15,076 nt of DNA, taken from the IMG/VR virus record IMGVR_UViG_2651869755_000010, positions 1-15,076 of that record, one strand, 5' to 3'. Under the pieces are notes generated by a model. It was not told the origin of the DNA. It did not search any database and saw only the letters and a list, made by a program, of their open reading frames with translations. The number at the start of each line of letters is the position of its first letter. Position 1 is the stretch's first letter. This stretch comes from a virus (lineage: Duplodnaviria; Heunggongvirae; Uroviricota; Caudoviricetes). Below are positions 1-14,554 of the stretch, piece by piece. The position numbers were made by a program, and so were the translations under genes.

Positions 1-247
1 GGCGGAGAGCATCAATGGTCTTTACAAAGCGGAGGTAATACACCGTAAGAGCTGGAAAAACCGTGCAGAAGTGGAACTGGCCACACTCACGTGGGTGGAC
101 TGGTATAACAATCGACGATTGCTGGAAAGGCTGGGCCATACTCCTCCGGCAGAAGCAGAAAAAGCTTATTATGCTTCCATCGGAAACGATGATCTGGCAG
201 CCTGAGTTCACAGATAAAATACTCTCCAGGAAACCCGGGGCGGTTCA
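1..247 (+). mobile_element. IS3-family insertion sequence, IS629-like, terminal portion containing the 3' end of the transposase gene; terminus at about 247
   Basis: Reverse complement of 206-247 reads TGAACCGCCCCGGGTTTCCTGGAGAGTATTTTATCTGTGAAC, which matches the terminal inverted repeat of IS629/IS3-group elements as I recall it (TGAACCGCCCCGGG...). It lies directly after the stop codon of an IS3-type transposase reading frame. Confidence 0.75.
2..205 (+). CDS. IS3-family transposase OrfB, C-terminal 67 codons (5'-partial, continues upstream of window)
   Basis: Frame 2 translates without a stop from the window start to TGA at 203-205: AESINGLYKAEVIHRKSWKNRAEVELATLTWVDWYNNRRLLERLGHTPPAEAEKAYYASIGNDDLAA. 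This is the characteristic C-terminal tail of IS3-family integrase-like transposases. Confidence 0.75.
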   Translation, partial: AESINGLYKAEVIHRKSWKNRAEVELATLTWVDWYNNRRLLERLGHTPPAEAEKAYYASIGNDDLAA

Positions 248-902
248 CAATAATAATTGGGCGTGTAGCACGTATCAGATCAATTGGCTTATCCAGATCG
301 TCAACGGTTGTTTTTTCACTGGACTGATAGAGCTTATTAACGTCTTTTTTGTTAATCGCACCAACTGTCATTACCATGATCTGCATAACAGAGCTGGTTG
401 CAAAATTTCGCACATCCGCAGGTTTAGACGAGTCATACAGATAGTATTCGTATGGAATTCCCGCATAGAGGCTTTTAAAATGTTCTTCAGTGATTTGTAG
501 TGTTTTATAAACGCCTTCCTTGATGGCAATGGAAGGAACCACAATGATAAATTTGCTCATGCCATAACGTTTATTCAGCTCCAGCATGGTGCGAAGATAA
601 ACATACGTTTTACCTGTCCCTGTTTCCATCTCGACAGTAAAATCATGGCTGTCGAGCACAGGTGAAGGTGGAAGCTGATTCTTCAACTGAACCTTGTTCA
701 GGTTTTTCAGCAGAACATCATCTTCGGGTATCTGTGGGTTTACAGGCATTGAACCTGTTGCGGCTTCAAATGAGAGTGCGCCCTGAGCTGGGGCCAGCAC
801 AGTCATTTCGCTCTCCCATTTCTCTTGCCCTTCAAATAAATCACAGACCGAAGTAATGGCGTTTTGCTGATAGGTAAGGTCAGATTCAAAATGTAGTTTC
901 AT
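248..902 (-). pseudogene. res: Type III restriction enzyme Res subunit, N-terminal fragment of about 218 codons, interrupted by the IS insertion
   Basis: Minus-strand ORF starts with ATG at 902, 9 nt after the mod stop, and carries helicase motif I (FTVEMETGTGKTYVY). The reading frame enters the IS terminal repeat at 247/248, around ...RATRPIIIV, where helicase motif II (DExH) would be expected. The remaining 51 codons of the track ORF 87..902 are read-through into IS sequence. Confidence 0.7.
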
Positions 903-911
903 CTCATTCCC

Positions 912-2888
912 TTACAGGCTGTGCAGGTTAGTCAGGCCGTGTTGTTCCAGAATGGCGCAAAGATTTGTTTTAGCGACGTTATTTTCAAACGCATCATCAA
1001 GGAAATAGCAGACCGTATCTTTCCCAACTTTTAAACTCTTATGCCAGTCGATGATCCCCTTGGTCAGTTCTTCTACTGAAGATGCAGGGATTTGTTTAGC
1101 AAAGCAGGTAAACAATTTGCCACCGTCAACGCAAGAAACGGTTAATCCATCAAACTGACGGGTTTCAATGTCTACACTCAGGTCAATGCCACGCTTAAGC
1201 ATCAACTCTGTGAGTAAATCTTCTTCACTACGGCCTTCGAGGATTGGACTTACATAGGCATCAATCTGTTGTGAAAGGGTATCAGCAGTCGCTTCCCACG
1301 GACGGATGTTAGATGTATCAAGTTTAAACACACGAAAGCCAACATCACCTTTCCATTCTGGATTGTCTTCACGAACTTTTTTACCTGCTCGGCGAAGGCG
1401 TTCTTTAGTTATTTCAGAAATTTTTAATGGCATTCCATTTTTATTTAAGAAGCTTGCAGCAACAATCTGCTCCTTTGTTTCTGGAACAACTGGTTCTGGT
1501 AGTTGCGTAATGATAAAATTTATCTTTCTATTCTTTGTTGCATTGGCCATGAAAACGGCATGACCAAAAGTACCTGATCCCCCAAAAAAATCAAGTGCTA
1601 TACCTTTTTCATTTGGGTGTGTAGCTATTTCTACTATACGTAAAAGAGTACCCAAAGGTTTTGGTCTTGAAAAAACTTCTTTTTCGAATCCCAGCTCAAT
1701 AAATTGTTCACTACCTCTTTCACTATTTACATCTTTATGTGTCCATGAAGAGGTAGCCTTTATTGCATCTCTTTTTGATAAATAGTCTTTCTCCATGATT
1801 CCCCACGTTTTTTTTGTGGGCATGAACTTAGCATAAACACTATCAATTTTCGATTTAGCTGTATCAAAACCCCATCGCCATCGTCCATCAGTACCATCAT
1901 CTCTAATTGGTTTAATTTCAATTAAATCATTTTTTTTCTGGTCTCTAGATATAAATAGTTCGTTTGTTTTTTGATCATAGTAAAAATAGTAAAACATATC
2001 TGGTCGATCTTCTCTACGGTCAGCATCACCAGTTTTACGTAAATCTATGTCACGGAATATTTCACCGTTTTCGTCTGTCTTATTATATCTCTTTGTTATT
2101 TTATCGTCAGGCTCAAAGCCATAGGTTTTTGCATAGTTAATGTTCTTCGCCATTACTAATATATATTCATGAGCTGTTGCTATGAATTTATCGTCAGACC
2201 GTCCTTTTGGATTGTTAGTATTAGCAATAAGGGATATGAAATTTTCTTCTCCAAAAATCTCAAAGCATATGCCACATAGGTTGTGAAGTTCATTTTCATC
2301 AATCGATATAAAAATAAAACCAGAGTTGGCAAGTAAGTTTCTTGCTAATTTTAGGCGAGGGTACATCATATTTAGCCAATCAGTGTGATAACGTCCACTG
2401 GTTTCTGTATTTGTGCTTAAGCGATTTCCATCTTCAGTTTGTCCAGTGATTTCAAGATAATTTTTCATGTTATCTTGGAAGTTATCTGGATACACAAAAT
2501 CTTTCCCGGTATTATAAGGCGGATCGATGTAAATAAGCTTAACTTTTCCAGCGTAGCTTTTTTGAAGAAGCTTCAACACTTCAAGGTTATCACCTTCGAT
2601 CATGACGTTTTTAGTGTTATCCCAATCAACGCTTTCATCTTTACATGGACGTAATGTGCCACGGGAAGGGGTAAGAGCAAGCTGACGAGCCTGACGCTTA
2701 CCATGCCAGTTCAGGCCATAGCGCTCTTCTTTGTCGTCTACATTTTCACCCAAGAGCTGTTTTAAAACGTCAAAATCAATACCGTTTTCATTAAATGCTT
2801 CAGGAAACAAAGAGTTAAGTTTGCTGATATTATCTTCAGTGATATTCATTGATTGTAGTTCTGTCATATCAGAAGTTATTTTTTTCAT
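912..2888 (-). CDS. mod: Type III restriction-modification system Mod subunit (beta-class N6-adenine DNA methyltransferase)
   Basis: 658-aa ORF with motif IV IYIDPPYNTG near residue 120 and motif I LDFFGGSGTFGHAV near residue 430 (beta-class order). The N-terminal region (LNWHGKRQARQLA, IEGDNLEVLKLL) resembles EcoP15I/StyLTI-type Mod. It lies directly upstream of a res-like helicase ORF. Confidence 0.9.
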   Translation of the reverse strand: MKKITSDMTELQSMNITEDNISKLNSLFPEAFNENGIDFDVLKQLLGENVDDKEERYGLNWHGKRQARQLALTPSRGTLRPCKDESVDWDNTKNVMIEGDNLEVLKLLQKSYAGKVKLIYIDPPYNTGKDFVYPDNFQDNMKNYLEITGQTEDGNRLSTNTETSGRYHTDWLNMMYPRLKLARNLLANSGFIFISIDENELHNLCGICFEIFGEENFISLIANTNNPKGRSDDKFIATAHEYILVMAKNINYAKTYGFEPDDKITKRYNKTDENGEIFRDIDLRKTGDADRREDRPDMFYYFYYDQKTNELFISRDQKKNDLIEIKPIRDDGTDGRWRWGFDTAKSKIDSVYAKFMPTKKTWGIMEKDYLSKRDAIKATSSWTHKDVNSERGSEQFIELGFEKEVFSRPKPLGTLLRIVEIATHPNEKGIALDFFGGSGTFGHAVFMANATKNRKINFIITQLPEPVVPETKEQIVAASFLNKNGMPLKISEITKERLRRAGKKVREDNPEWKGDVGFRVFKLDTSNIRPWEATADTLSQQIDAYVSPILEGRSEEDLLTELMLKRGIDLSVDIETRQFDGLTVSCVDGGKLFTCFAKQIPASSVEELTKGIIDWHKSLKVGKDTVCYFLDDAFENNVAKTNLCAILEQHGLTNLHSL

Positions 2889-3067
2889 AAAAAGTATCCG
2901 TCATGAGGTCACGGGAAATCAGTGTCCGAAATTGGTAAGCATTTTACGGTATGAAGTGATAGCCATCAACCAGTGATGGCTATTCAAACATATCTAAAAC
3001 AAAGGGTTACATGCTGCTATATGATGGGTTATCAAACGGTTAGCCGTAATTTTCTAACTCATAATGT

Positions 3068-4339
3068 TCACCTTTGGGCAAACTCAAACGGCCTGACCAT
3101 ATCGTTTCGATTGGCATCAAGGAAGTCAGCCCACCACTGGAGCATCAGTCGGCGCTGGTCAAGGTGTTTAGCCTTATGGGTATAAGCAGCACGGACGCTG
3201 TTGCTTTCCTTATGACTCATCTGAAGCTCTACAGCGTCTTCTGACCACAAACCTGACTCAATTAAGGCACTACAGGCCAGCGTGCGAAAACCGTGCCCAC
3301 AGATGTCCTGCTTCGTGTCATAGCCCATATTGCGAAGGGCTTTGTTGATGGTATTTTCGCTCATGGGCTTAAACGAGTCATAACAGCCAGTAAAGATTAA
3401 TCCATCATCATGGCCTTCTTCATAAGTCAGTTGTCGGATCTCTTTGAGTATCTTCATGGCCTGCTTACAAAGGGGAACGAAGTGCTTACGCTTCATTTTA
3501 GCCCCACGAGTTGAATGTTTGACGTTTTCAATCGCTTCACGCTGTTCGGGTATCACCCATAACTTACTTTTGAAATCAATTTCTGACCAGCGAGCGAAAC
3601 GCAGCTCACTGGAACGAATGAAAATCATCAGATTGAGCTGTATTGCCAGTATGGTTAACCTGCGGCCTTTGTATTCGGCAATTTTTTTCAGTAGTTGGGG
3701 TATTTCTTCCAGTTCCAGTGCAGGGCGGTGTTCAGTCTGCGGTTTCTGAATAGCACCTTCCATATCATAGGCCGGGTTATGACGTATAAGTTTCTGCTGA
3801 ACAGCATGACGCAGGATCGCAGTAATGTATTGTTGAATGCGCATGGCAACTTCAAGATAGCCAAGTGCCTCAACCTTTTTCACTGGAACCAGCAGATCAC
3901 CCGTATCCAGTTCGGCAACATCTTTATCGCCAATTGTCGGGAAGACATAGGTTTCAAGGCGCTTCCATACGGAATCACCATAATCTTTAGACCATTTTGT
4001 TTTCGTGGAGAACCAAGCTTTAGCGACTACGCTGAAAGAGCGTGTTTTATCACGTTTAGCTTTTAGCTCTTTAACTTCTGCCTGTTTCTTGGCATTAGGG
4101 TCAATGCCCTGAGCAAGAAGCCTTCTGGCTTCATCACGGCGTTGTCTTGCGTCAGAAAGAGAAACAGCAGGGTAAACACCAATAGAGAAGAGTTTTTGCT
4201 TCCCTTCAAAACGGTAGGCCATTTGCCAGTATTTGGAACCCTTCGGGGTAACGCGAAGGAACATACCAAAGCCATCAGTAAGCTTGTATTCCTTCTCAAG
4301 GGGTTTGGCATTTTTTGCTTTAATATCAGTCAGTGACAT
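3068..4339 (-). CDS. int: P4-type tyrosine integrase (site-specific recombinase) of the tRNA-Asn island
   Basis: The track ORF is 434 aa; the likely start is the internal ATG at 4339 (MSLTDIKAKNAKP...), typical of P4-family integrases. N-terminal arm-binding-like domain and C-terminal catalytic domain (GHGFRTLACSAL..., AAYTH). Adjacent to the tRNA-Asn 3' end. Confidence 0.85.
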   Translation of the reverse strand: MSLTDIKAKNAKPLEKEYKLTDGFGMFLRVTPKGSKYWQMAYRFEGKQKLFSIGVYPAVSLSDARQRRDEARRLLAQGIDPNAKKQAEVKELKAKRDKTRSFSVVAKAWFSTKTKWSKDYGDSVWKRLETYVFPTIGDKDVAELDTGDLLVPVKKVEALGYLEVAMRIQQYITAILRHAVQQKLIRHNPAYDMEGAIQKPQTEHRPALELEEIPQLLKKIAEYKGRRLTILAIQLNLMIFIRSSELRFARWSEIDFKSKLWVIPEQREAIENVKHSTRGAKMKRKHFVPLCKQAMKILKEIRQLTYEEGHDDGLIFTGCYDSFKPMSENTINKALRNMGYDTKQDICGHGFRTLACSALIESGLWSEDAVELQMSHKESNSVRAAYTHKAKHLDQRRLMLQWWADFLDANRNDMVRPFEFAQR

Positions 4340-4484
4340 GAAAAAATCCCCTCGATTGTTGGTAAAAGGCAAATCGAACCAGCATTACCAGCATTTTTAC
4401 CATCAAAATGATATGGCTTCGAGTGGTTTTTAGTGAACGAGGGTGAACGACTGAAGAGGGATAACCGATTGATAGAAATGCAGA

Positions 4485-4510
4485 AAGCAGACGTTAGTGA
4501 ACGTCTGCTT
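4485..4510 (-). terminator. Candidate intrinsic terminator downstream of tRNA-Asn
   Basis: 9-bp inverted repeat AAGCAGACG / CGTCTGCTT with an 8-nt loop, 10 nt after the tRNA 3' end on the minus strand. It is followed on the transcript by a moderately U-rich tract (UCUGCAUUUCUAU). Confidence 0.35.
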
Positions 4511-4519
4511 CCTTGAAAA

Positions 4520-4595
4520 TGGCTCCTCTGACTGGACTCGAACCAGTGACATACGGATTAACAGTCCGCCGTTCTACCGACTGAACTACAGAGGA
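4520..4595 (-). tRNA. asnT: tRNA-Asn (anticodon GUU)
   Basis: Reverse complement is TCCTCTGTAGTTCAGTCGGTAGAACGGCGGACTGTTAATCCGTATGTCACTGGTTCGAGTCCAGTCAGAGGAGCCA, 76 nt, a canonical cloverleaf with a GTT anticodon and encoded CCA. Called asnT rather than another asn copy because of the neighbouring mtfA and serU. Confidence 0.93.
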
Positions 4596-4695
4596 ATCGT
4601 GAGAACGGGGCGCATATTACTTAGCGGTACCTTGTCTGTCAACACTAAATTTCATAAGCCATTTCAATTGGTTAATTAATCTGCAAAGTTGTTAA

Positions 4696-5493
4696 TTAAT
4701 GAACATTCGTCGCCGAAAACGAGTCTGTATCATTAGCGTGATGCAGTCTCTGCAAAGGATCTTGTTGATAAAATTGACAGAAACGTTGCCACAATGAAGG
4801 GAAACGAGGAGCAAAAAGTTCTGGGGCGCTAAAGAAATATTCAGAAAGTACGGCAAAACATTCAGCAGGATCACTGGCAGCATAAGCATCAATGCTCGCC
4901 GCATTCTCACCAACTAATTCGATTTCTTCCTGAATGTTGTTCATTGCAGCATGAAGATCGTGTTCCCAGCCAGCAACCTCACGCAACGAAATAAAGGGAA
5001 CTCCGCTGGCGCGATCGCCGTTACGGGTGTCCAGCTTATGAGCGACTTCATGAATAATCAGGTTAAAACCAGAAGCATCAAAAGAATCTTGTATATCCAA
5101 CCAGTTCAAAACGATAGGCCCTTGCTGCCAGCTCTGACCTGACTGAACAATACGTTGGTTATGCACCAGACCGATATCGTCTTCCCATTCATCATCGACC
5201 ACAAATGGCGCAGGATAAATTAAGACTTCATGAAAACCATCCAGCCATTCCAGTCCTAACTCCAGAACGGGCAGGCAAAATAGAAGTGCTATCCGGCAGC
5301 TTCTTAATGAATTCAGCTCAAAGCCCTGTAAAGGAACAAGCCGTTTTTGCTGTAAAAAACGTTCGGCAAGAGCGACCAATTTGCTTTGTTCCTGTTCTGT
5401 CAGACACGTTAAAAGGGGGATCGATAGTGCTTCCTGCCAGGGAAGGGCAGTTTGATGTGCTGATTCTTGTACTTTCCAGGGCCACTTAATCAT
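4696..5493 (-). CDS. mtfA: MtfA (Mlc titration factor A), zinc-dependent peptidase family
   Basis: 265-aa product starting MIKWPWK... (ATG at 5493, internal to the track ORF 4696..5532). HExxH zinc-binding motif (IIHEVAHKL). Conserved position between asnT and serU, as in E. coli K-12. Confidence 0.9.
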
Positions 5494-5586
5494 CGTTTTG
5501 CTCGCAAACTCGTCACTTGAACAAAATTGCACGGACAGGGACTGTTAAAATGCCAAATTTCCTGGCATCATGGCAACCATCTGAAC

Positions 5587-5676
5587 GGAGAGATGCCGGA
5601 GCGGCTGAACGGACCGGTCTCGAAAACCGGAGTGGGGGCAACTCCACCGGGGGTTCAAATCCCCCTCTCTCCGCCA
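5587..5676 (+). tRNA. serU: tRNA-Ser (anticodon CGA), with long variable arm
   Basis: GGAGAGATGCCGGAGCGGCTGAACGGACCGGTCTCGAAAACCGGAGTGGGGGCAACTCCACCGGGGGTTCAAATCCCCCTCTCTCCGCCA, 90 nt: class II tRNA with CGA anticodon in the loop CTCGAAA and encoded CCA. Confidence 0.93.
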
Positions 5677-5721
5677 AAATTCAATCACTTACACATCATT
5701 AAGTCAGTGACAAAAATCACA

Positions 5722-5753
5722 CTTGGAATTACTTGGAATATTTTCTTGGAATA
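5722..5753. repeat. Three direct copies of CTTGGAAT in the tRNA-proximal att region (candidate integrase arm-type sites)
   Basis: CTTGGAAT occurs at 5722-5729, 5732-5739 and 5746-5753; the last two sit within a duplicated TTGGAATATTTTC. The repeats straddle the integrase stop codon at the prophage end. Confidence 0.3.
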
Positions 5754-6754
5754 TTTTCAGGTAACGGGACATCAAGTGTCGGTGAAACTTTAACCTTCCT
5801 GTCATAGATTAGCACTTGCCCCTCGGTTTTGTGACCAGAGAAAAGTTGCTTATCCCGACTGCTTCCTTCATAGTCTGAAATTCCTTTCGCCTTCAGATCA
5901 TGAAAGGTGAAGTCGGTTAAAATACCTGAAATTTTGCCTGCGCGATTTCTTGCTTCTACCCACATTTCGTTAAAGCCTTTGTACATATATCGGTTGCCGT
6001 ATTGATTGCTGATTACATAGGCGGATGTTGGTAACTGTTTTGCTTTTTCGATCGCCGCCTGTAATCGTGGACTCCATGCTTTTATCTGTTTTTTTCCTGT
6101 TTTCCCTTGCTGGATAAAGATCCCGTCGTTTCCAATCTGCTCCCATTTCAGCGATAACACATCGGAAACCCTCGCTGCACACAGATAGGCAATTTCCATT
6201 GCGATAAAAACAGGAAGAGGTGCAACGCTTAATACTGCCTGGTATTCTTTGTCGGTTACATATCGTTCGCGGTTTTTGGCCTTGAATTTACTTACACCTG
6301 CACATGGGTTAGCCTTCACGTACCCTCGCTCATACCCCCAACTGTAAACACGGGACATACTGCTTTTTTCATGGTTGGCTTGCGTTTTACTCTGCTCCCC
6401 TCTTTTGTCCATGTATCGACGGATGTGTTCTGGTTTTATGGAATCCGCTGGTACCTTACCGAATACGGCAAGCAACTTTTTTTGATGTTGCAGATAATCT
6501 TTTTGTGTTCTTGGACTAAGGTCACTGTAATAGGCGCTGGCGAGGAATTTTTCCCACAAGCGACCGAATGTCATTGCACGATCGCGATTATTTACAGTTT
6601 CCTCATACTTTTTCCATAAAGCAGCTAAACCATCCTTGATGGCGGTTAGTGTGACAGATTCTCTGGATGTTGGTTTCCATACATAACTATATTTATTTGG
6701 GTATACATTTGGAGGTAATTTTTCGTGTTCAGGATTTTTCCTTCGTCTTCCCAT
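5729..6754 (-). CDS. int: Prophage tyrosine integrase
   Basis: 341-aa ORF with phage-integrase-type C-terminal catalytic region (...FTFHDLKAKGISDY..., ...GHKTEGQVLIYDRK...). Convergent with and adjacent to tRNA-Ser; start codon overlaps the stop of the upstream xis-like ORF (ATGA). Confidence 0.88.
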   Translation of the reverse strand: MGRRRKNPEHEKLPPNVYPNKYSYVWKPTSRESVTLTAIKDGLAALWKKYEETVNNRDRAMTFGRLWEKFLASAYYSDLSPRTQKDYLQHQKKLLAVFGKVPADSIKPEHIRRYMDKRGEQSKTQANHEKSSMSRVYSWGYERGYVKANPCAGVSKFKAKNRERYVTDKEYQAVLSVAPLPVFIAMEIAYLCAARVSDVLSLKWEQIGNDGIFIQQGKTGKKQIKAWSPRLQAAIEKAKQLPTSAYVISNQYGNRYMYKGFNEMWVEARNRAGKISGILTDFTFHDLKAKGISDYEGSSRDKQLFSGHKTEGQVLIYDRKVKVSPTLDVPLPENIPRKYSK

Positions 6755-6957
6755 CAGATCGCACCAAAATTCGGCTCTACCTCGCGTGGTGGTAAAGTTT
6801 TATTGCAGGTAAATAGATCCCGGCTGACAATCGGTTTGCCACTACGATTGGTATAGAACGGAAGCCCGTTTTCCATTAACCATTTTCGCTGGTGGCTTGC
6901 ATATTTGCAGCCCGTTAATATTAGCAATTCATCTTCGGTTAAAAATAAGCTGCTCAT
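6754..6957 (-). CDS. Excisionase-like small protein (DUF4224-like) upstream of integrase
   Basis: 67-aa ORF MSSLFLTEDELLILTGCKYASHQRKWLMENGLPF..., overlapping the int start by 1 nt. Position and sequence pattern match the small proteins found directly upstream of prophage integrases. Confidence 0.55.
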   Translation of the reverse strand: MSSLFLTEDELLILTGCKYASHQRKWLMENGLPFYTNRSGKPIVSRDLFTCNKTLPPREVEPNFGAI

Positions 6958-9550: not shown

Positions 9551-9739
9551 TTAAAATCCTGCCGGGATTTCGTTATCCTGGTGAATAACTTTATCGACCG
9601 GATAACAGTTGCCTGGAATTTTCTGTTCGGTTGCTGCGGCCATACATTCCTGCATTGTTCTGTGAACACTGACTGCAATATCAACTGGCTCTCCGGAAAC
9701 AAGAAAAACCGTCAGAATAAGTGCAAATACTGGATTCAT
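9551..9739 (-). CDS. ydfD: YdfD-like small lysis protein of the dicB operon
   Basis: 62-aa product MNPVFALILTVFLVSGEPVDIAVSVHRTMQECMAAATEQKIPGNCYPVDKVIHQDNEIPAGF, with a hydrophobic N-terminus. Start is the internal ATG at 9739 with an AAGGA Shine-Dalgarno, overlapping the dicB stop (ATGA). Matches my recollection of K-12 YdfD in size and sequence. Confidence 0.65.
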   Translation of the reverse strand: MNPVFALILTVFLVSGEPVDIAVSVHRTMQECMAAATEQKIPGNCYPVDKVIHQDNEIPAGF

Positions 9740-9924
9740 TGTGCACATCCTTTTGGCATCAGACGTAAACGGGCCAGCATTGAAACAATGCATACTTTAT
9801 TTAATAACTCCCGTTCGTGTTTTCTTTTGTTAATGGCCTCTTCAGTGAATACAGGATTACTGATAGTGACACCAATTTCAAAACAACCTTCAGACGTATT
9901 AACGTTTGGTAATAACGTTTTCAT
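9736..9924 (-). CDS. dicB: DicB cell-division inhibitor (MinC-dependent FtsZ-ring inhibitor)
   Basis: 62-aa product MKTLLPNVNTSEGCFEIGVTISNPVFTEEAINKRKHERELLNKVCIVSMLARLRLMPKGCAQ, starting at the internal ATG 9924 with a GAGGA Shine-Dalgarno 8 nt upstream. Near-identical to my recollection of E. coli DicB, and directly downstream of DicF. Confidence 0.75.
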   Translation of the reverse strand: MKTLLPNVNTSEGCFEIGVTISNPVFTEEAINKRKHERELLNKVCIVSMLARLRLMPKGCAQ

Positions 9925-10093
9925 TATCGCGTCCTCAACAATGAATTTTGTGATGCAGTGCCTGGTGCCTCCAGGTGACGTTAACCAGTTAACAATTAAC
10001 GCCGGATACAGAGAATCCACCCATAACACTGTTTTTGGTTTTAACTGTTCCGCGTGCGCTTAGCCGCATTCACCGCATCACAAAATTCACTTT

Positions 10094-10151
10094 AAAAACG
10101 GCGGCAGAGCAGTCACGGAGTAAAACTGATACCGCCAAACGTCACCAGAAA
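10094..10151 (-). ncRNA. dicF: DicF small RNA (ftsZ-targeting Hfq-dependent sRNA) with U-tail
   Basis: Minus-strand sequence TTTCTGGTGACGTTTGGCGGTATCAGTTTTACTCCGTGACTGCTCTGCCGCCG followed by TTTTT matches the 53-nt DicF sequence as I recall it. Contains a GGCGG...CCGCC terminator-like stem and lies between ydfC and dicB as in Qin. Ends are approximate. Confidence 0.7.
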
Positions 10152-10491
10152 ATTGATAACAGAGGGCGTTGCAGCGGGGTTGTCACTTAAGCGTATGGTC
10201 AACCTGACAACCCGGTGTCCTCAACGGGGAAGGAATAACCCCGCCATACTTACCGCCGCGCCATTTCGCGGATTGCCACAACCGGAAGCGCACGGTCGAC
10301 GAAAATTTAACGACAGGCTATCTATGAACCAGCTACCTCGCCGTGCGCTTTCGCGTTATGGTCTGACCTTTCAGGGAAATATCCTTTCAGTAAACTGTCT
10401 GTGCCGGATGCTCACCCGTGTCCGGCGCACGCACTCCACCTCATCCGTGGAGAACTCCTTAATTACCAACCTTAGCTTCGTTGGTTAGCTA

Positions 10492-10710
10492 TTAACGCGG
10501 GTATGTAATCATTCTGGCAATGCTTAATGCCGCTGCTTTTTCCAGATTAGTGATATCCTGCTCCAGAGCGGACAGATTTTCAGCCTGCTTAGCCCTGGCT
10601 TCATTGGCCCATTTCAGATCCTGCGCTGCATTAATTTTCTGGTGCATCCACTCATAAAGTTCATCATCGGTATAGTCTGGCGCGATGATGACGGGTTCTC
10701 GTTTCTGCAT
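10492..10710 (-). CDS. ydfC: YdfC-like small protein of the dicB operon
   Basis: 72-aa ORF MQKREPVIIAPDYTDDELYEWMHQKINAAQDLKWANEARAKQAENLSALEQDITNLEKAAALSIARMITYPR, with an AAGGAG Shine-Dalgarno 6 nt upstream of ATG 10710. Size and position match ydfC upstream of DicF. Confidence 0.65.
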   Translation of the reverse strand: MQKREPVIIAPDYTDDELYEWMHQKINAAQDLKWANEARAKQAENLSALEQDITNLEKAAALSIARMITYPR

Positions 10711-11434: not shown

Positions 11435-12073
11435 TTAAATATCTTGTTGAATTTTAAAGCATACGCCCAATATGCAAGATAGATCATCCAGCATAATTGA
11501 AGGGTAGCGAGGATTCGTGGGGACTAAAAGAATATCCGGCCCTTCTATCTCCAGTTTACGAATGACAGGTGTTGTGGTCCCTTTGGGTAAGGCAAGGACA
11601 ATATTTCCTGGTTGTACGGTTCGATCGGGATCAACAAAAACTGTTGAACCATTTGGGATGGAAACTCCCCCACCAGATGTTGACATACTGTCACTCTCTA
11701 GAACAACTGCAAAGGTATTGACCGGGATTTCTCCGACAAGCTGCACACAAGAGGTTATTGAGGAATTTTTCATATAATCACTCCAGCTTGCTGCCTGCTG
11801 AAGTGATAGTAGCGGAACCGTTTTTATCGGCGGTAAAGATAGATCAAGCGAATCACCTGTATTTAACTCTCCTCCATTAAGAAGCCAATTTTCGTTTACT
11901 TTCAATATTTTTGCCAGGGAACTTATGTAACGCGAGGACGGCGCTCCTCCACCGTTCATCCATTGACTTACGGAGCCTTTTGATGCGCCAGTGCCATTGA
12001 CAAGGTCTTTGCCTTTCAGGTTTAGCGCATGCATACGTTGGGTTATGCGTTCAGATATAGTTTGCTTGCTCAT
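11435..12073 (-). CDS. CI-type prophage repressor (N-terminal HTH, C-terminal S24 LexA-like autopeptidase domain)
   Basis: 212-aa ORF with an N-terminal HTH region (...GKDLVNGTGASKGSVSQWMNGG...) and a C-terminal S24-like domain (candidate Ser in VLESDSMSTSGG, Lys in VIRKLE). Divergent from a cro-like gene. No Shine-Dalgarno precedes the start codon, which lies inside the operator palindrome. Confidence 0.85.
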   Translation of the reverse strand: MSKQTISERITQRMHALNLKGKDLVNGTGASKGSVSQWMNGGGAPSSRYISSLAKILKVNENWLLNGGELNTGDSLDLSLPPIKTVPLLSLQQAASWSDYMKNSSITSCVQLVGEIPVNTFAVVLESDSMSTSGGGVSIPNGSTVFVDPDRTVQPGNIVLALPKGTTTPVIRKLEIEGPDILLVPTNPRYPSIMLDDLSCILGVCFKIQQDI

Positions 12074-12136
12074 GTTTTGATTTTAAAACACAGATGGTTT
12101 TGTTTCTTGACTTTCTTTGGTTTTGATTATTAAACT
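12073..12136. promoter_or_regulatory. Immunity-region operator/promoter segment (oR-like): palindrome TGTTTT-N6-AAAACA at 12073-12090, degenerate copy at 12119-12136, candidate pR -35 TTGACT at 12107-12112
   Basis: The 91-bp divergent cI/cro intergenic region holds TGTTTTgattttAAAACA, GGTTTTgattatTAAACT and a recurring GGTTTTG motif. TTGACT lies 17 bp upstream of TTAAAC, oriented toward cro. Confidence 0.4.
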
Positions 12137-12164
12137 TTTGACGTTCAGTTTTATGGAGCGACTC

Positions 12165-12407
12165 ATGAAAAAATCAGAAGTATTAGGCTATTTTGGCGGA
12201 GTTGTTAAAACAGCCGCAGCTCTAGGAACGTCAAAAACCACAGTCAGCATGTGGGGGGAAGAGGTTCCGTGGAAATGGGCGTTGCTAATTCAGGCAGTCA
12301 CTGCCGGGGCGCTCAAATATGAGTTACACATACCGACGGTTGTCATTCCCGGTTCTGATCATAATCCGCCTTCTAACCAAGGGGGGATTCATGAAAATCA
12401 AGCATGA
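12165..12407 (+). CDS. Cro-like / YdaS-family HTH regulator
   Basis: 80-aa ORF MKKSEVLGYFGGVVKTAAALGTSKTTVSMWGEEVPWKWALLIQAVTAGALKY..., with a GGAG Shine-Dalgarno upstream of ATG 12165. It is the first gene of the rightward operon, divergent from cI. The 3' end overlaps the next gene by 17 nt, so the true C-terminus is uncertain. Confidence 0.6.
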   Translation: MKKSEVLGYFGGVVKTAAALGTSKTTVSMWGEEVPWKWALLIQAVTAGALKYELHIPTVVIPGSDHNPPSNQGGIHENQA

Positions 12408-12816
12408 ACACATCCGCATGGCGATGAATGCCTGGGCGCATCCGGACGGCGAAAAAGTACCGGCTGCGAAAATTACCAAAGCGTATTTCGAGCTGGGAAT
12501 GACGTTCCCGGAACTGTACGACGACAGCCATCCGGAAGCCCTGGCCCGTAATACCCAGAAAATTTTCCGCTGGGTGGAGAAGGACACCCCTGATGCTGTT
12601 GAAAAAATTCAGGCTCTGTTACCGGCGATCGAAAAGGCGATGCCGCCTTTGCTGGTGGCCCGTATGCGCAGCCACAGTTCTGAATATTACCGTGAGATCG
12701 TCGAACGGAGGGATCGGCTGGTGAAGGATGTCGATGATTTTGTTGCGTCAGCGGTTGTTTTGTATGACCAGATGAATCGCGGCGGCCCGGCAGGGAATGC
12801 TGTGGTGATGCACTAA
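12391..12816 (+). CDS. YdaT-like protein (second gene of rightward early operon)
   Basis: 141-aa product MKIKHEHIRMAMNAWAHPDGEKVPAAKITKAYFELGMTFPELYDD..., starting at the internal ATG 12391 preceded by a GGGGGG Shine-Dalgarno. The N-terminus (MKIKHEH) matches my recollection of YdaT-family proteins that follow cro-like genes in Rac-like prophages. Confidence 0.6.
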   Translation: MKIKHEHIRMAMNAWAHPDGEKVPAAKITKAYFELGMTFPELYDDSHPEALARNTQKIFRWVEKDTPDAVEKIQALLPAIEKAMPPLLVARMRSHSSEYYREIVERRDRLVKDVDDFVASAVVLYDQMNRGGPAGNAVVMH

Positions 12817-12838
12817 AAGCACGGTGTTCGGGGGTTTT

Positions 12839-13801
12839 ATGAGCAGCAAGCTTCATGGTCTTGTCTGGGAAGGGTGCGCCTTCACCGGCATGATCTTATC
12901 CAGGGTGGCGGTTATGGCCCGTCTTGCAGACTACAGCAATGACGAGGGTGTGTCATGGCCTGCCATTGAAACTATCCGGCGTCAGATCGGTGCAAGAAGT
13001 GAATCCACAGTGAAATCGGCTATTGCAGAACTGGCGAAAGAGGGCTGGCTGACGAAGGAAGAGCGTAAGGTCGGTGGGCGTAATGTAAGCAATATCTATC
13101 GGCTTAATGTGGAAAAACTCGAAGCAGCTGCGGCGGCGGCGCGTGAGTCATATAAACCGAAAAGAAAAATTAGCCCGGCAAAAAATGACCCGTTAACAGT
13201 TGACCCGTCAAATATTGACCCCTCAACGGTTGACCCGTCAAATTTTGATGGATCAACTGTTGATAAAAAACTGCCGATTAGGGGGGCGATGATTGACCCC
13301 GATCCGTCAGTATTAAAACCTGATCCGTCAGATAAAAGATCTTCTTGTCCGGACGCTTCGCAACCGGACCCGCAGACGGCTGAACAGGATTTTTTAACCC
13401 GACACCCTGACGCGGTTGTGTTCAGTGCGAAAAAACGCCAGTGGGGAAGTCAGGAAGATTTGGTGTGCGCACAGTGGATCTGGGGACGAATCGTGAGTCT
13501 TTACGAGCAGGCGGCCAGCTATGATGGCGAGATCACTAGACCGAAAGAACCCAACTGGACAGCATGGGCCAATGACGTTCGCACAATGCGGATGCTGGAT
13601 GGCAGAACTCACAGACAAATTTGTGAAATGTTTGGGCGTCTCCAGCGGGATTCGTTCTGGGTAAAAAACATCATGAGTCCGGCAAAACTCCGGGAAAAAT
13701 GGGATGAACTGGTTATCCGCCTGGGGCGTTCGCCTGCGCAGCGTTGCGTGAATCACATTTCTGAACCGGACACTGAAATACCGCCGGGATTCAGGGGGTG
13801 A
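12839..13801 (+). CDS. Phage replication initiator (O-like, N-terminal winged-HTH) with internal iterons
   Basis: 320-aa product from ATG 12839 (track ORF begins at GTG 12824). The N-terminal wHTH-like region (...SWPAIETIRRQIGARSESTVKSAIAELAKEGWL...) is followed by a DP-rich linker encoded by 15-bp direct repeats. Sits directly upstream of a DnaC-like gene. Confidence 0.75.
   Translation: MSSKLHGLVWEGCAFTGMILSRVAVMARLADYSNDEGVSWPAIETIRRQIGARSESTVKSAIAELAKEGWLTKEERKVGGRNVSNIYRLNVEKLEAAAAAARESYKPKRKISPAKNDPLTVDPSNIDPSTVDPSNFDGSTVDKKLPIRGAMIDPDPSVLKPDPSDKRSSCPDASQPDPQTAEQDFLTRHPDAVVFSAKKRQWGSQEDLVCAQWIWGRIVSLYEQAASYDGEITRPKEPNWTAWANDVRTMRMLDGRTHRQICEMFGRLQRDSFWVKNIMSPAKLREKWDELVIRLGRSPAQRCVNHISEPDTEIPPGFRG
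13186..13260. repeat. Five tandem 15-bp iterons (TGACCCGTnAAnnnT) inside the replication initiator gene; probable phage replication origin
   Basis: TGACCCGTTAACAGT, TGACCCGTCAAATAT, TGACCCCTCAACGGT, TGACCCGTCAAATTT and TGATGGATCAACTGT are contiguous. More degenerate copies follow (TGATAAAAAACTGCC at 13261, GACCCCGATCCGTCAG near 13295, TGATCCGTCAG at 13321). Confidence 0.6.
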
Positions 13802-13807
13802 CGTGTC

Positions 13808-14554
13808 ATGAAAAACATTGCGGCAGTTGGGGTTCTTGAACGTATTCGCAGACTTGCACCACAGGGGTCGGTTCCACCGTACCGGACGGTGGAGGAGTGG
13901 CGGGAATGGCAACTTGCTGAAGGACGAAAACGCAGCGAGGAGATTAACCGCCAGAATCGCCAGTTGCGGGTGGAAAAAATCCTGAATCGTTCGGGCATCC
14001 AGCCTCTGCACAGCAAATGCTCGTTTGCAAATTATCAGGTGCAGAACGACGGGCAAAAATACGCGCTGAGCCAGGCCAAATCCATAGCTGACGAACTGAT
14101 GACCGGGTGCACGAATTTTGTGTTCAGCGGTAAAACCGGCACCGGGAAAAATCACCTTGCAGCGGCGATGGGCAACCGGCTGATGGTGAAGGGGCGCAGC
14201 GTGATTATCGTCACCGTGTCTGACGTCATGAGCGTGTTGCATGACAGCTACGACAACGGCAAATCCGGGGAAAAATTTTTACAGGAGCTTTGCGGGGTTG
14301 ATTTGCTGGTCCTGGATGAAATAGGCGTTCAGCGGGAGACGAAAAACGAGCAGGTGGTATTGCACCAGATAATTGATCGCCGGACAGCATCACTGTGCAG
14401 TGTCGGGATGTTAACAAACCTGAATCATGTCGCAATGAGTACGCTTCTTGGTGAGAGGATTATGGACCGCATGACCATGAACGGTGGTCGATGGGTGACG
14501 TTTAACTGGGATAGCTGGCGTCCAAATGTCAGCAATATGAGGGTTGTGAAGTAA
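13808..14554 (+). CDS. DnaC-like helicase loader / IstB-like AAA+ ATPase (phage replication protein)
   Basis: 248-aa ORF with Walker A (FSGKTGTGKNHLAAA) and Walker B (DLLVLDEIG), preceded by an AGGGGG Shine-Dalgarno. Downstream of the initiator gene as in Rac ydaU-ydaV and lambda O-P. Confidence 0.85.
   Translation: MKNIAAVGVLERIRRLAPQGSVPPYRTVEEWREWQLAEGRKRSEEINRQNRQLRVEKILNRSGIQPLHSKCSFANYQVQNDGQKYALSQAKSIADELMTGCTNFVFSGKTGTGKNHLAAAMGNRLMVKGRSVIIVTVSDVMSVLHDSYDNGKSGEKFLQELCGVDLLVLDEIGVQRETKNEQVVLHQIIDRRTASLCSVGMLTNLNHVAMSTLLGERIMDRMTMNGGRWVTFNWDSWRPNVSNMRVVK

Follow-up and report, generated by a model that had tools for sequence, protein, structure and literature searches.

How does mtfA, a single protein-coding gene of the core chromosome, come to lie between two tyrosine integrase genes of different families, each beside the 3' end of a tRNA gene? 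The question is raised by the virus record IMGVR_UViG_2651869755_000010, a stretch of 15,076 bp that is called the window throughout and that makes up the whole of one draft contig (LJYC01000056.1, assembly GCA_001306715.1), with repeats at both contig ends. The tRNA genes in question, serU and asnT, are textbook integration hotspots of Escherichia coli, and the first-pass annotation of this DNA had proposed that each was occupied by a mobile element of its own. The analysis described here comes to the same view, with a probability of roughly 0.9 that the window represents the segment serU-mtfA-asnT of a chromosome of the E. coli type, where two unrelated mobile elements have each used one of the tRNA genes as attachment site. 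Judged by its sequence, the element at asnT is the tRNA-proximal end of a ROD21-like (EARL) integrative mobilisable island, and the element at serU is a CP-933U-like lambdoid prophage, of which the window holds the part from attL to the replication genes.

This reading is carried by the positions of the junctions. When the window is compared by BLAST with the yodB-serU-mtfA-asnT-yeeJ region of E. coli K-12 MG1655, there is a single match, from 4520 to 5676 (1,157 bp, 98% identity). Its edges are exactly the 3' end of asnT (4520) and the CCA end of serU (5676), and the K-12 region contains none of the sequence to the left of 4520 or to the right of 5676. The comparison with K-12, which had been suggested as the means of defining both junctions, does so to the base. 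ARAGORN and Rfam confirm that the two tRNA genes point in opposite directions, asnT on the minus strand and serU on the plus strand, with their 5' ends inward toward each other, their 3' ends outward and mtfA between them. The integrase beside the 3' end of asnT is of the P4 type and that beside the 3' end of serU is of the lambda type, and the two together fit within 3.69 kb (3068-6754), as first described. The statement that only mtfA is core DNA between the elements holds in part. It is the sole protein-coding core gene there, matching the NCBIfam equivalog NF011939 at 538.9 bits over profile positions 1-265 of 265, but the core block (4520-5676) also includes both tRNA genes.

It would be a very different matter if the sequences next to the integrases were themselves conserved core DNA. 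Such an explanation can be given hardly any credence: both flanks are absent from K-12, and among 5,426 complete E. coli genomes, on which all of the occupancy counts are based, the empty K-12-type junction at asnT is present in 2,672 (49%) and the empty junction at serU in 3,851 (71%). About 51% and 29% of the genomes, respectively, are without the empty junction. Moreover, the cargo at the same sites differs in other strains, in which asnT can be occupied by the yersiniabactin high-pathogenicity island (HPI) and serU by the TcpC island, and the G+C content of the island in the window drops to 33-39% over mod. Nothing in these comparisons was found to support the core-DNA explanation, and the original description of the integrase-proximal DNA as mobile is borne out. 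The features on which the following account is based are listed in Table 1.

Table 1. Features of the 15,076-bp window from left to right, with strand and supporting evidence or remarks.
Feature	Position	Strand	Evidence or remark
IS3-family right end: C-terminal end of transposase and terminal inverted repeat ending ...GGGGCGGTTCA	1-247	+	Inside island res gene; one contig end
res, type III restriction endonuclease, N-terminal fragment	248-902	-	ResIII/DEAD domains; NF012027 profile positions 1-210 of 986 only
mod, type III restriction-modification DNA methyltransferase, 658 aa, apparently intact	912-2888	-	N6_N4_Mtase, E = 1e-29
P4-type tyrosine integrase, 423 aa from ATG at 4339	3068-4339	-	Arm-DNA-bind_3, Phage_int_M, Phage_integrase
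Island-side arm of asnT att site, non-coding	4340-4519	.	No K-12 homology left of 4520; 100% identical up to 4519 in TW10828
asnT, tRNA-Asn(GUU)	4520-4595	-	ARAGORN and Rfam; identical to K-12 asnT
mtfA (Mlc titration factor / DgsA anti-repressor), intact, 265 aa	4696-5493	-	NF011939 equivalog, Peptidase_M90
serU, tRNA-Ser(CGA)	5587-5676	+	ARAGORN and Rfam
Prophage-side (P'-like) arm of attL	5677-5760	.	Three direct CTTGGAAT repeats, overlapping 3' end of int
Lambda-family tyrosine integrase (int), 341 aa	5729-6754	-	Full-length alignment to lambda Int structures
Excisionase-like gene (xis), DUF4224, 67 aa, overlapping int start codon	6754-6957	-	DUF4224, E = 1.9e-15; phrog_1266 excisionase, E = 3e-21
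RecE-like exonuclease (exodeoxyribonuclease VIII N-terminal region and 3'-5' exonuclease domain), 813 aa	7016-9457	-	
dicB-type cell-division-inhibition block	9551-10710	-	Pfam DicB and DUF1482; Rfam; annotation of relatives
ydfD-like gene (in dicB-type block)	9551-9739	-	
dicB (in dicB-type block)	9736-9924	-	
DicF antisense small RNA	10099-10150	-	Rfam RF00039, 72.5 bits
ydfC-like gene (in dicB-type block)	10492-10710	-	
cI-like repressor, S24 peptidase domain	11435-12073	-	
cro-like regulator	12117-12407	+	
cII-like/YdaT-family gene	12319-12816	+	
O-like replication initiator	12824-13801	+	
DnaC-like helicase loader	13808-14554	+	

Islands of the EARL (ROD21-like) family have a P4-like integrase located at an Asn-tRNA gene, together with pilin genes and a MobA/MobL relaxase with TraD, and they often carry H-NS homologues and an R-M (restriction-modification) system of type III (PMC6035254). 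A recombination directionality factor is also among the conserved modules, and a direct repeat of the Asn-tRNA 3' end, of about 22-24 bp, marks the far end of the island. The element at asnT has the P4-like tyrosine integrase adjoining the Asn-tRNA 3' end, at a distance of 148-181 bp, as well as the accessory type III R-M system, with mod intact and res truncated by an insertion sequence (IS). The open reading frame of the integrase spans 3068-4372, the 423-aa gene is the one called in the source assembly, and the catalytic motifs RSSELR, GHGFR and MSH...Y are intact. Adjacent to it, the island-side arm contains a hairpin at about 4486-4509, formed by an inverted 14-mer. The window covers only the integrase-proximal 4.5 kb of the island, and within it no pilin, MOBQ relaxase/TraD, recombination directionality factor or H-NS gene was found.

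The missing parts are present in relatives. In strain PRO_A-1401-6M-A_ESBL, an island that is approximately 90% identical (H1) occupies asnT. It is 26 kb long and ends next to yeeJ, where its far end carries a perfect 24-bp repeat, TGGCTCCTCTGACTGGACTCGAAC, of the asnT 3' end, and its cargo includes a MobQ relaxase, TraD, a type 4 pilin, an H-NS homologue and a type III R-M system. About 40 complete genomes contain the window segment 912-4519 with 100% identity. One of these is TW10828, whose island has an intact res, PilV, a type 4 pilin, TraD, a MobQ relaxase, radical-SAM genes and a SEN1982-family gene. The att core is represented in the window by the 3' 24 nt of asnT (4520-4543), of which the related islands have a further copy at their far end; a second copy was not found within the window, whose edge is an IS inside the island. 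The first-pass annotation had proposed to look, at the distal end of each element, for direct repeats of the tRNA 3' ends. These exist in relatives, with 24 bp for asnT and 62 bp for serU, and not in the window. Because the window is one entire draft contig, the distal att copies of both elements lie beyond it.

Another candidate for the element at asnT was the HPI, a commoner occupant of this site than EARL-type islands. It was rejected, as the integrase in the window is 48% identical to the HPI integrase and is followed by type III R-M genes instead of ybtS and the other ybt genes.

By analogy with P4 Int and ROD21, the P4-type integrase would have recombined attP of the element with the 3' 24 nt of the Asn-tRNA gene, leaving a ROD21-like island beside asnT. 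Later, res was broken by the insertion of an IS3-family element. The break itself is at base 247/248. About 220 of the initial codons of res remain, and its open reading frame (87-902) runs on into IS sequence. In relatives the uninterrupted gene is 2,961 bp, and the match to the res of the H1 island begins at base 247. The preceding bases, 1-247, are 97-98% identical to sequence that carries the annotation IS3 family transposase in 4,164 of the 5,426 genomes. We take this IS to resemble IS629/IS1203. An IS near the integrases had been mentioned at first; it is indeed there, and can now be described more exactly as the right end of an IS3-family element inside the island res gene. An IS at this position of res was not found in the complete E. 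coli genomes of the collection (no place covering 80% or more of window 1-400), and a scan of genome contigs for exact matches to the IS/res junction gave no match. The insertion probably inactivates restriction and leaves the methyltransferase intact.

The island is not confined to asnT. In TW10828 the identical int-mod segment (L008 14001-17684, corresponding to window 912-4595) is located at asnW, next to yeeO, and not at asnT next to mtfA. One and the same island occurs at different Asn-tRNA genes, whose sequences are identical. This allows for a second route, in which the island was first at asnW and reached asnT through an inversion, by homologous recombination between the inverted and identical asnW and asnT genes. 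The complete identity of segment 912-4519 to the asnW island, shared with about 40 other genomes, is consistent with such an event, and since asnW is inverted relative to asnT, the same local structure would be expected. Recombination between Asn-tRNA copies is also documented for ROD21, in its type 2 excision (PMC3198454). However, the features of the window fit both routes alike. Direct integration at asnT is the simpler of the two because the four Asn-tRNA genes offer one integrase the same target, and the islands of approximately 90% identity that lie at asnT have a proper 24-bp repeat next to yeeJ. An inversion is accordingly considered quite improbable, and direct integration at asnT is preferred.

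The four identical Asn-tRNA genes also bear on the stability of the locus. Together with other IS copies, they are more plausible substrates for recombination than the pair of att sites in the window. It had been suggested that inverted att sites with an IS nearby would make this region prone to rearrangement. That idea is unsupported and, in this form, unlikely. The two att sites are unrelated in sequence and are used by different integrases, so that their inversion offers no evident substrate for an exchange between them, and the window shows no rearrangement.

On the serU side, the integrase belongs to the lambda Int family. Residues 1-313 align with residues 1-338 of lambda Int (E = 8e-13), including the N-terminal arm-binding segment, the neighbouring gene is xis, and the junction is at the 3' end of serU, 53 bp from the stop codon of the integrase. 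R195, H285, H308 and Y317 align with R212, H308, H333 and Y342 of lambda Int. K288 (codon 5891-5893) stands in the HxxR motif, which reads FHDLKAKG compared to FHELRSLS in lambda, at the place of the catalytic Arg311. The homologue of the DUF4224 gene in the lambdoid phage mEp390 is annotated as a putative excisionase. The combination of int, xis and the attL arm is found at serU, nearly identical, in O157:H7 and in many other E. coli.

The att identity block on this side is much longer than at asnT and comprises 62 nt of serU (5615-5676), beginning in the anticodon stem and including the CCA end. Strain NCTC11151, which has the same int and attL, contains a prophage of about 42 kb, at the distal end of which serU is repeated over 62 bp, from the anticodon stem to CCA; no second copy of the serU 3' segment was found within the window. 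In the int-proximal serU of the window, positions 5634 and 5645 in the variable arm form a compensated G..C pair, as at four of five other occupied sites, and the empty site of K-12 has A..T. The displaced 62-bp copy in NCTC11151 keeps the A..T pair of K-12. The difference between the displaced and the int-proximal copies suggests that the 3' 62 nt of the working serU tRNA, including the compensated G-C pair, were probably supplied by the phage. From the same difference, we infer that strand exchange takes place in the anticodon stem-loop region of serU. By analogy with lambda Int, the integrase together with Xis would have carried out the recombination at this region of tRNA-Ser(CGA), so that the 3' 62 nt of the intact tRNA would derive from the phage and the original 3' part would have been displaced to the far end of the prophage.

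In the prophage-side arm of attL, the CTTGGAAT repeats lie at 5722-5729, 5732-5739 and 5745-5752, and these three clustered copies are among only four in the window, where 0.72 would be expected. Two of the three extend into the final codons of int, where they encode the conserved tail. The arm and its repeat array are invariant in four E. coli strains, and the array (ATTCCAAG/CTTGGAAT) is kept in relatives at serU in E. albertii and at tRNA-Ser(UGA) in Salmonella and Siccibacter (L013 2519-2539; L015 2531; L017 2503-2533). NCTC11151 has two further copies in the opposite arm, adjacent to attR (L006 26849-26860 and 26914-26926). By comparison with P'1-P'3 and P1-P2 of lambda, the repeats are probably arm-type Int binding sites and are treated here as candidates for that role. 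A more far-reaching idea is that the family of lambda-type integrases targeting serU/serT is mechanistically unusual, having Lys in place of Arg311 and a C-terminal tail, ...NIPxKYSK, that is a by-product of the three ATTCCAAG sites overlapping the 3' end of int. This idea is tentative and seems doubtful at present. If it were true, the integrase would bind the DNA that encodes its own tail.

Beyond xis, the prophage contains the set of early, immunity and replication genes typical of lambdoid phages, namely a RecE-like exonuclease, the dicB/DicF block, cI-, cro- and cII-like regulators, an O-like initiator with iterons and a DnaC-like helicase loader. In its immunity and replication modules the prophage is a mosaic, with different parts matching different relatives. 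In the cell-division-inhibition block, the order ydfC-dicF-dicB-ydfD is as in the Qin prophage. Four 15-bp iterons with a TTGACCCGT core (13165-13239) are located inside the gene for the O-like initiator and are likely the replication origin of the prophage. No TIR-domain or H-NS genes were found in the visible 9.4 kb of the element. The possibility that it is PAI-serU, the pathogenicity island (PAI) with TcpC/Hfp, was considered and rejected in view of the lambda-type integrase and the phage genes present here. Two database records labelled as phages have a 99.7% identical integrase. They were rejected as evidence of a viable phage, being prophage predictions that include the host mtfA, asnT and HPI genes. 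The record 'Escherichia phage vB_EcoM-606R7' (L004, ON470580.1) in the phage collection contains the host serU, mtfA, asnT and HPI genes and represents a prophage prediction with chromosomal flanks and not a packaged genome.

Several observations weigh against the view that two integrated mobile elements meet at this locus. The far att sites and the remainder of both elements fall outside the 15-kb draft contig, and both could be truncated remnants. The island res gene is disrupted by the IS. The Lys that replaces the catalytic Arg311 of lambda Int is found family-wide, and the activity of the serU integrase is a prediction. In every relative examined, the Prokaryotic Genome Annotation Pipeline (PGAP) calls the serU integrase a frameshifted pseudogene (L001 8379-9429, L002 7191-8241, L010 2685-3732 and L011 2693-3743). 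Lastly, one occupied serU site, L001 of strain PRO_A-1401-6M-A_ESBL, has A..T in the variable arm, making G..C an imperfect marker of phage-borne sequence.

Two of these observations can be accounted for. A lysine at the position of Arg311 is also found in the integrases of ST64B and mEp390 and in all of the close homologues retrieved. It is therefore a trait of the family, and its interpretation as an inactivating lesion was rejected. As for the PGAP label, the integrase in the window has no indel relative to the relatives so labelled, and the protein database contains thousands of 341-aa members of the family. The 341-aa frame and the tail, ...NIP(R/G/T)KYSK, are kept in homologues from E. 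albertii, Salmonella and Siccibacter at 61-85% identity. Since frame and C-terminus are conserved at this distance, we think that the label is a systematic annotation artefact and that the 341-aa gene appears to be intact; its classification as a pseudogene was rejected.

If both elements were nevertheless immobile and decayed, that is, a cryptic prophage and the stump of an island, the integrases next to the tRNA genes would be relics. The cut in res, the PGAP label in relatives and the contig ends inside both elements would all be in agreement with this, and serU prophages are reported to be frequently replaced and deleted (PMC7067040). On the other hand, both integrase frames are intact, with the catalytic Tyr, His and Arg aligned. 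The 341-aa length and the tail of the serU integrase are conserved across genera, xis is intact, and neither attL nor its arm repeats vary from strain to strain. In relatives, the elements are full-length and their distal repeats intact, and islands of the ROD21 family have been shown to excise (PMC3198454, PMC6035254). Decay of both elements is possible but unlikely, and the reading preferred is still that of two integrated mobile elements. Their present mobility may be expected by analogy with lambda Int, P4 Int and ROD21.

The occupation of both tRNA genes is not peculiar to the window. For double occupancy, queries were used for which 80% coverage was possible only with both integrase flanks, and specific pairs of integrases were counted. 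The integrase of the window-type asnT island occurs together with the serU integrase of the window in 57 complete genomes, and the HPI integrase at asnT occurs with the same serU integrase in a further 491. At least 548 genomes, or at least about 10% of complete E. coli, consequently have an integrase on both sides of mtfA. The doubly occupied layout is both frequent and already documented, because of these genomes, because PAI-serU and PAI-asnT are tabulated only about 1.6 kb apart in uropathogenic E. coli (UPEC) 536 and CFT073 (PMC7545054), and because serU is a standard prophage site in Shiga toxin-producing E. coli (STEC) (PMC7067040). Both elements are nearly identical to many sequenced copies, and the locus has little significance beyond its correct annotation. 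In this respect, the element at asnT should be named a ROD21-like (EARL) island whose type III restriction gene has been inactivated by an IS, and not HPI, and the serU integrase labelled as frameshifted by PGAP looks intact.

Compared to phage lambda, the prophage shares the full-length alignment of Int, including MGRRR...LPPN(V/L)Y, and the position of xis immediately upstream of int. It also has three direct repeats in the int-proximal arm, comparable to P'1-P'3, and two in the other arm. It differs in its target, which is a tRNA gene with a 62-bp identity block starting from the anticodon stem instead of the intergenic attB of lambda. It further differs in having Lys for Arg311 and in that the candidate arm repeats overlap the stop codon of the integrase and encode its C-terminal tail. 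Among the closest systems are the lambdoid prophages at serU, such as those of the CP-933U type in O157:H7 and those of STEC O145/O121. The int, xis, attL arm and lambdoid early region are the same, but the contig ends at 15076, before the late region and any cargo. The Int of ST64B is 59% identical to the serU integrase, and its record notes a similarity to CP-933U. Presumably ST64B also integrates at serU, an assumption for which a literature search for ST64B together with serU found nothing.

The island at asnT shares with the EARL/ROD21 family the P4-like integrase at the 3' end of Asn-tRNA and the type III R-M cargo. ROD21 is 26.5 kb long, has a 24-bp repeat and excises (PMC3198454), and the relatives of the island in the window match it in both size (26 kb) and repeat (24 bp). 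The pilin/PilV, MobQ/TraD and SEN1982-family modules are found in the TW10828 island, whose int-mod segment is 100% identical. In contrast, res is broken by an IS in the window. The likeness to ROD21 is drawn from the gene set and the repeat length. The layout as a whole is most readily compared with that of UPEC 536 and CFT073, where serU and asnT are also both occupied and are separated by about 1.6 kb containing mtfA; in strain 536, PAI-serU extends to 1969721 and PAI-asnT begins at 1971318 (PMC7545054). The occupants are different. In UPEC 536 and CFT073 they are a 22-kb TcpC island with a P4-like integrase at serU and the yersiniabactin HPI at asnT, whereas in the window a lambdoid prophage is located at serU and an EARL-type island at asnT.

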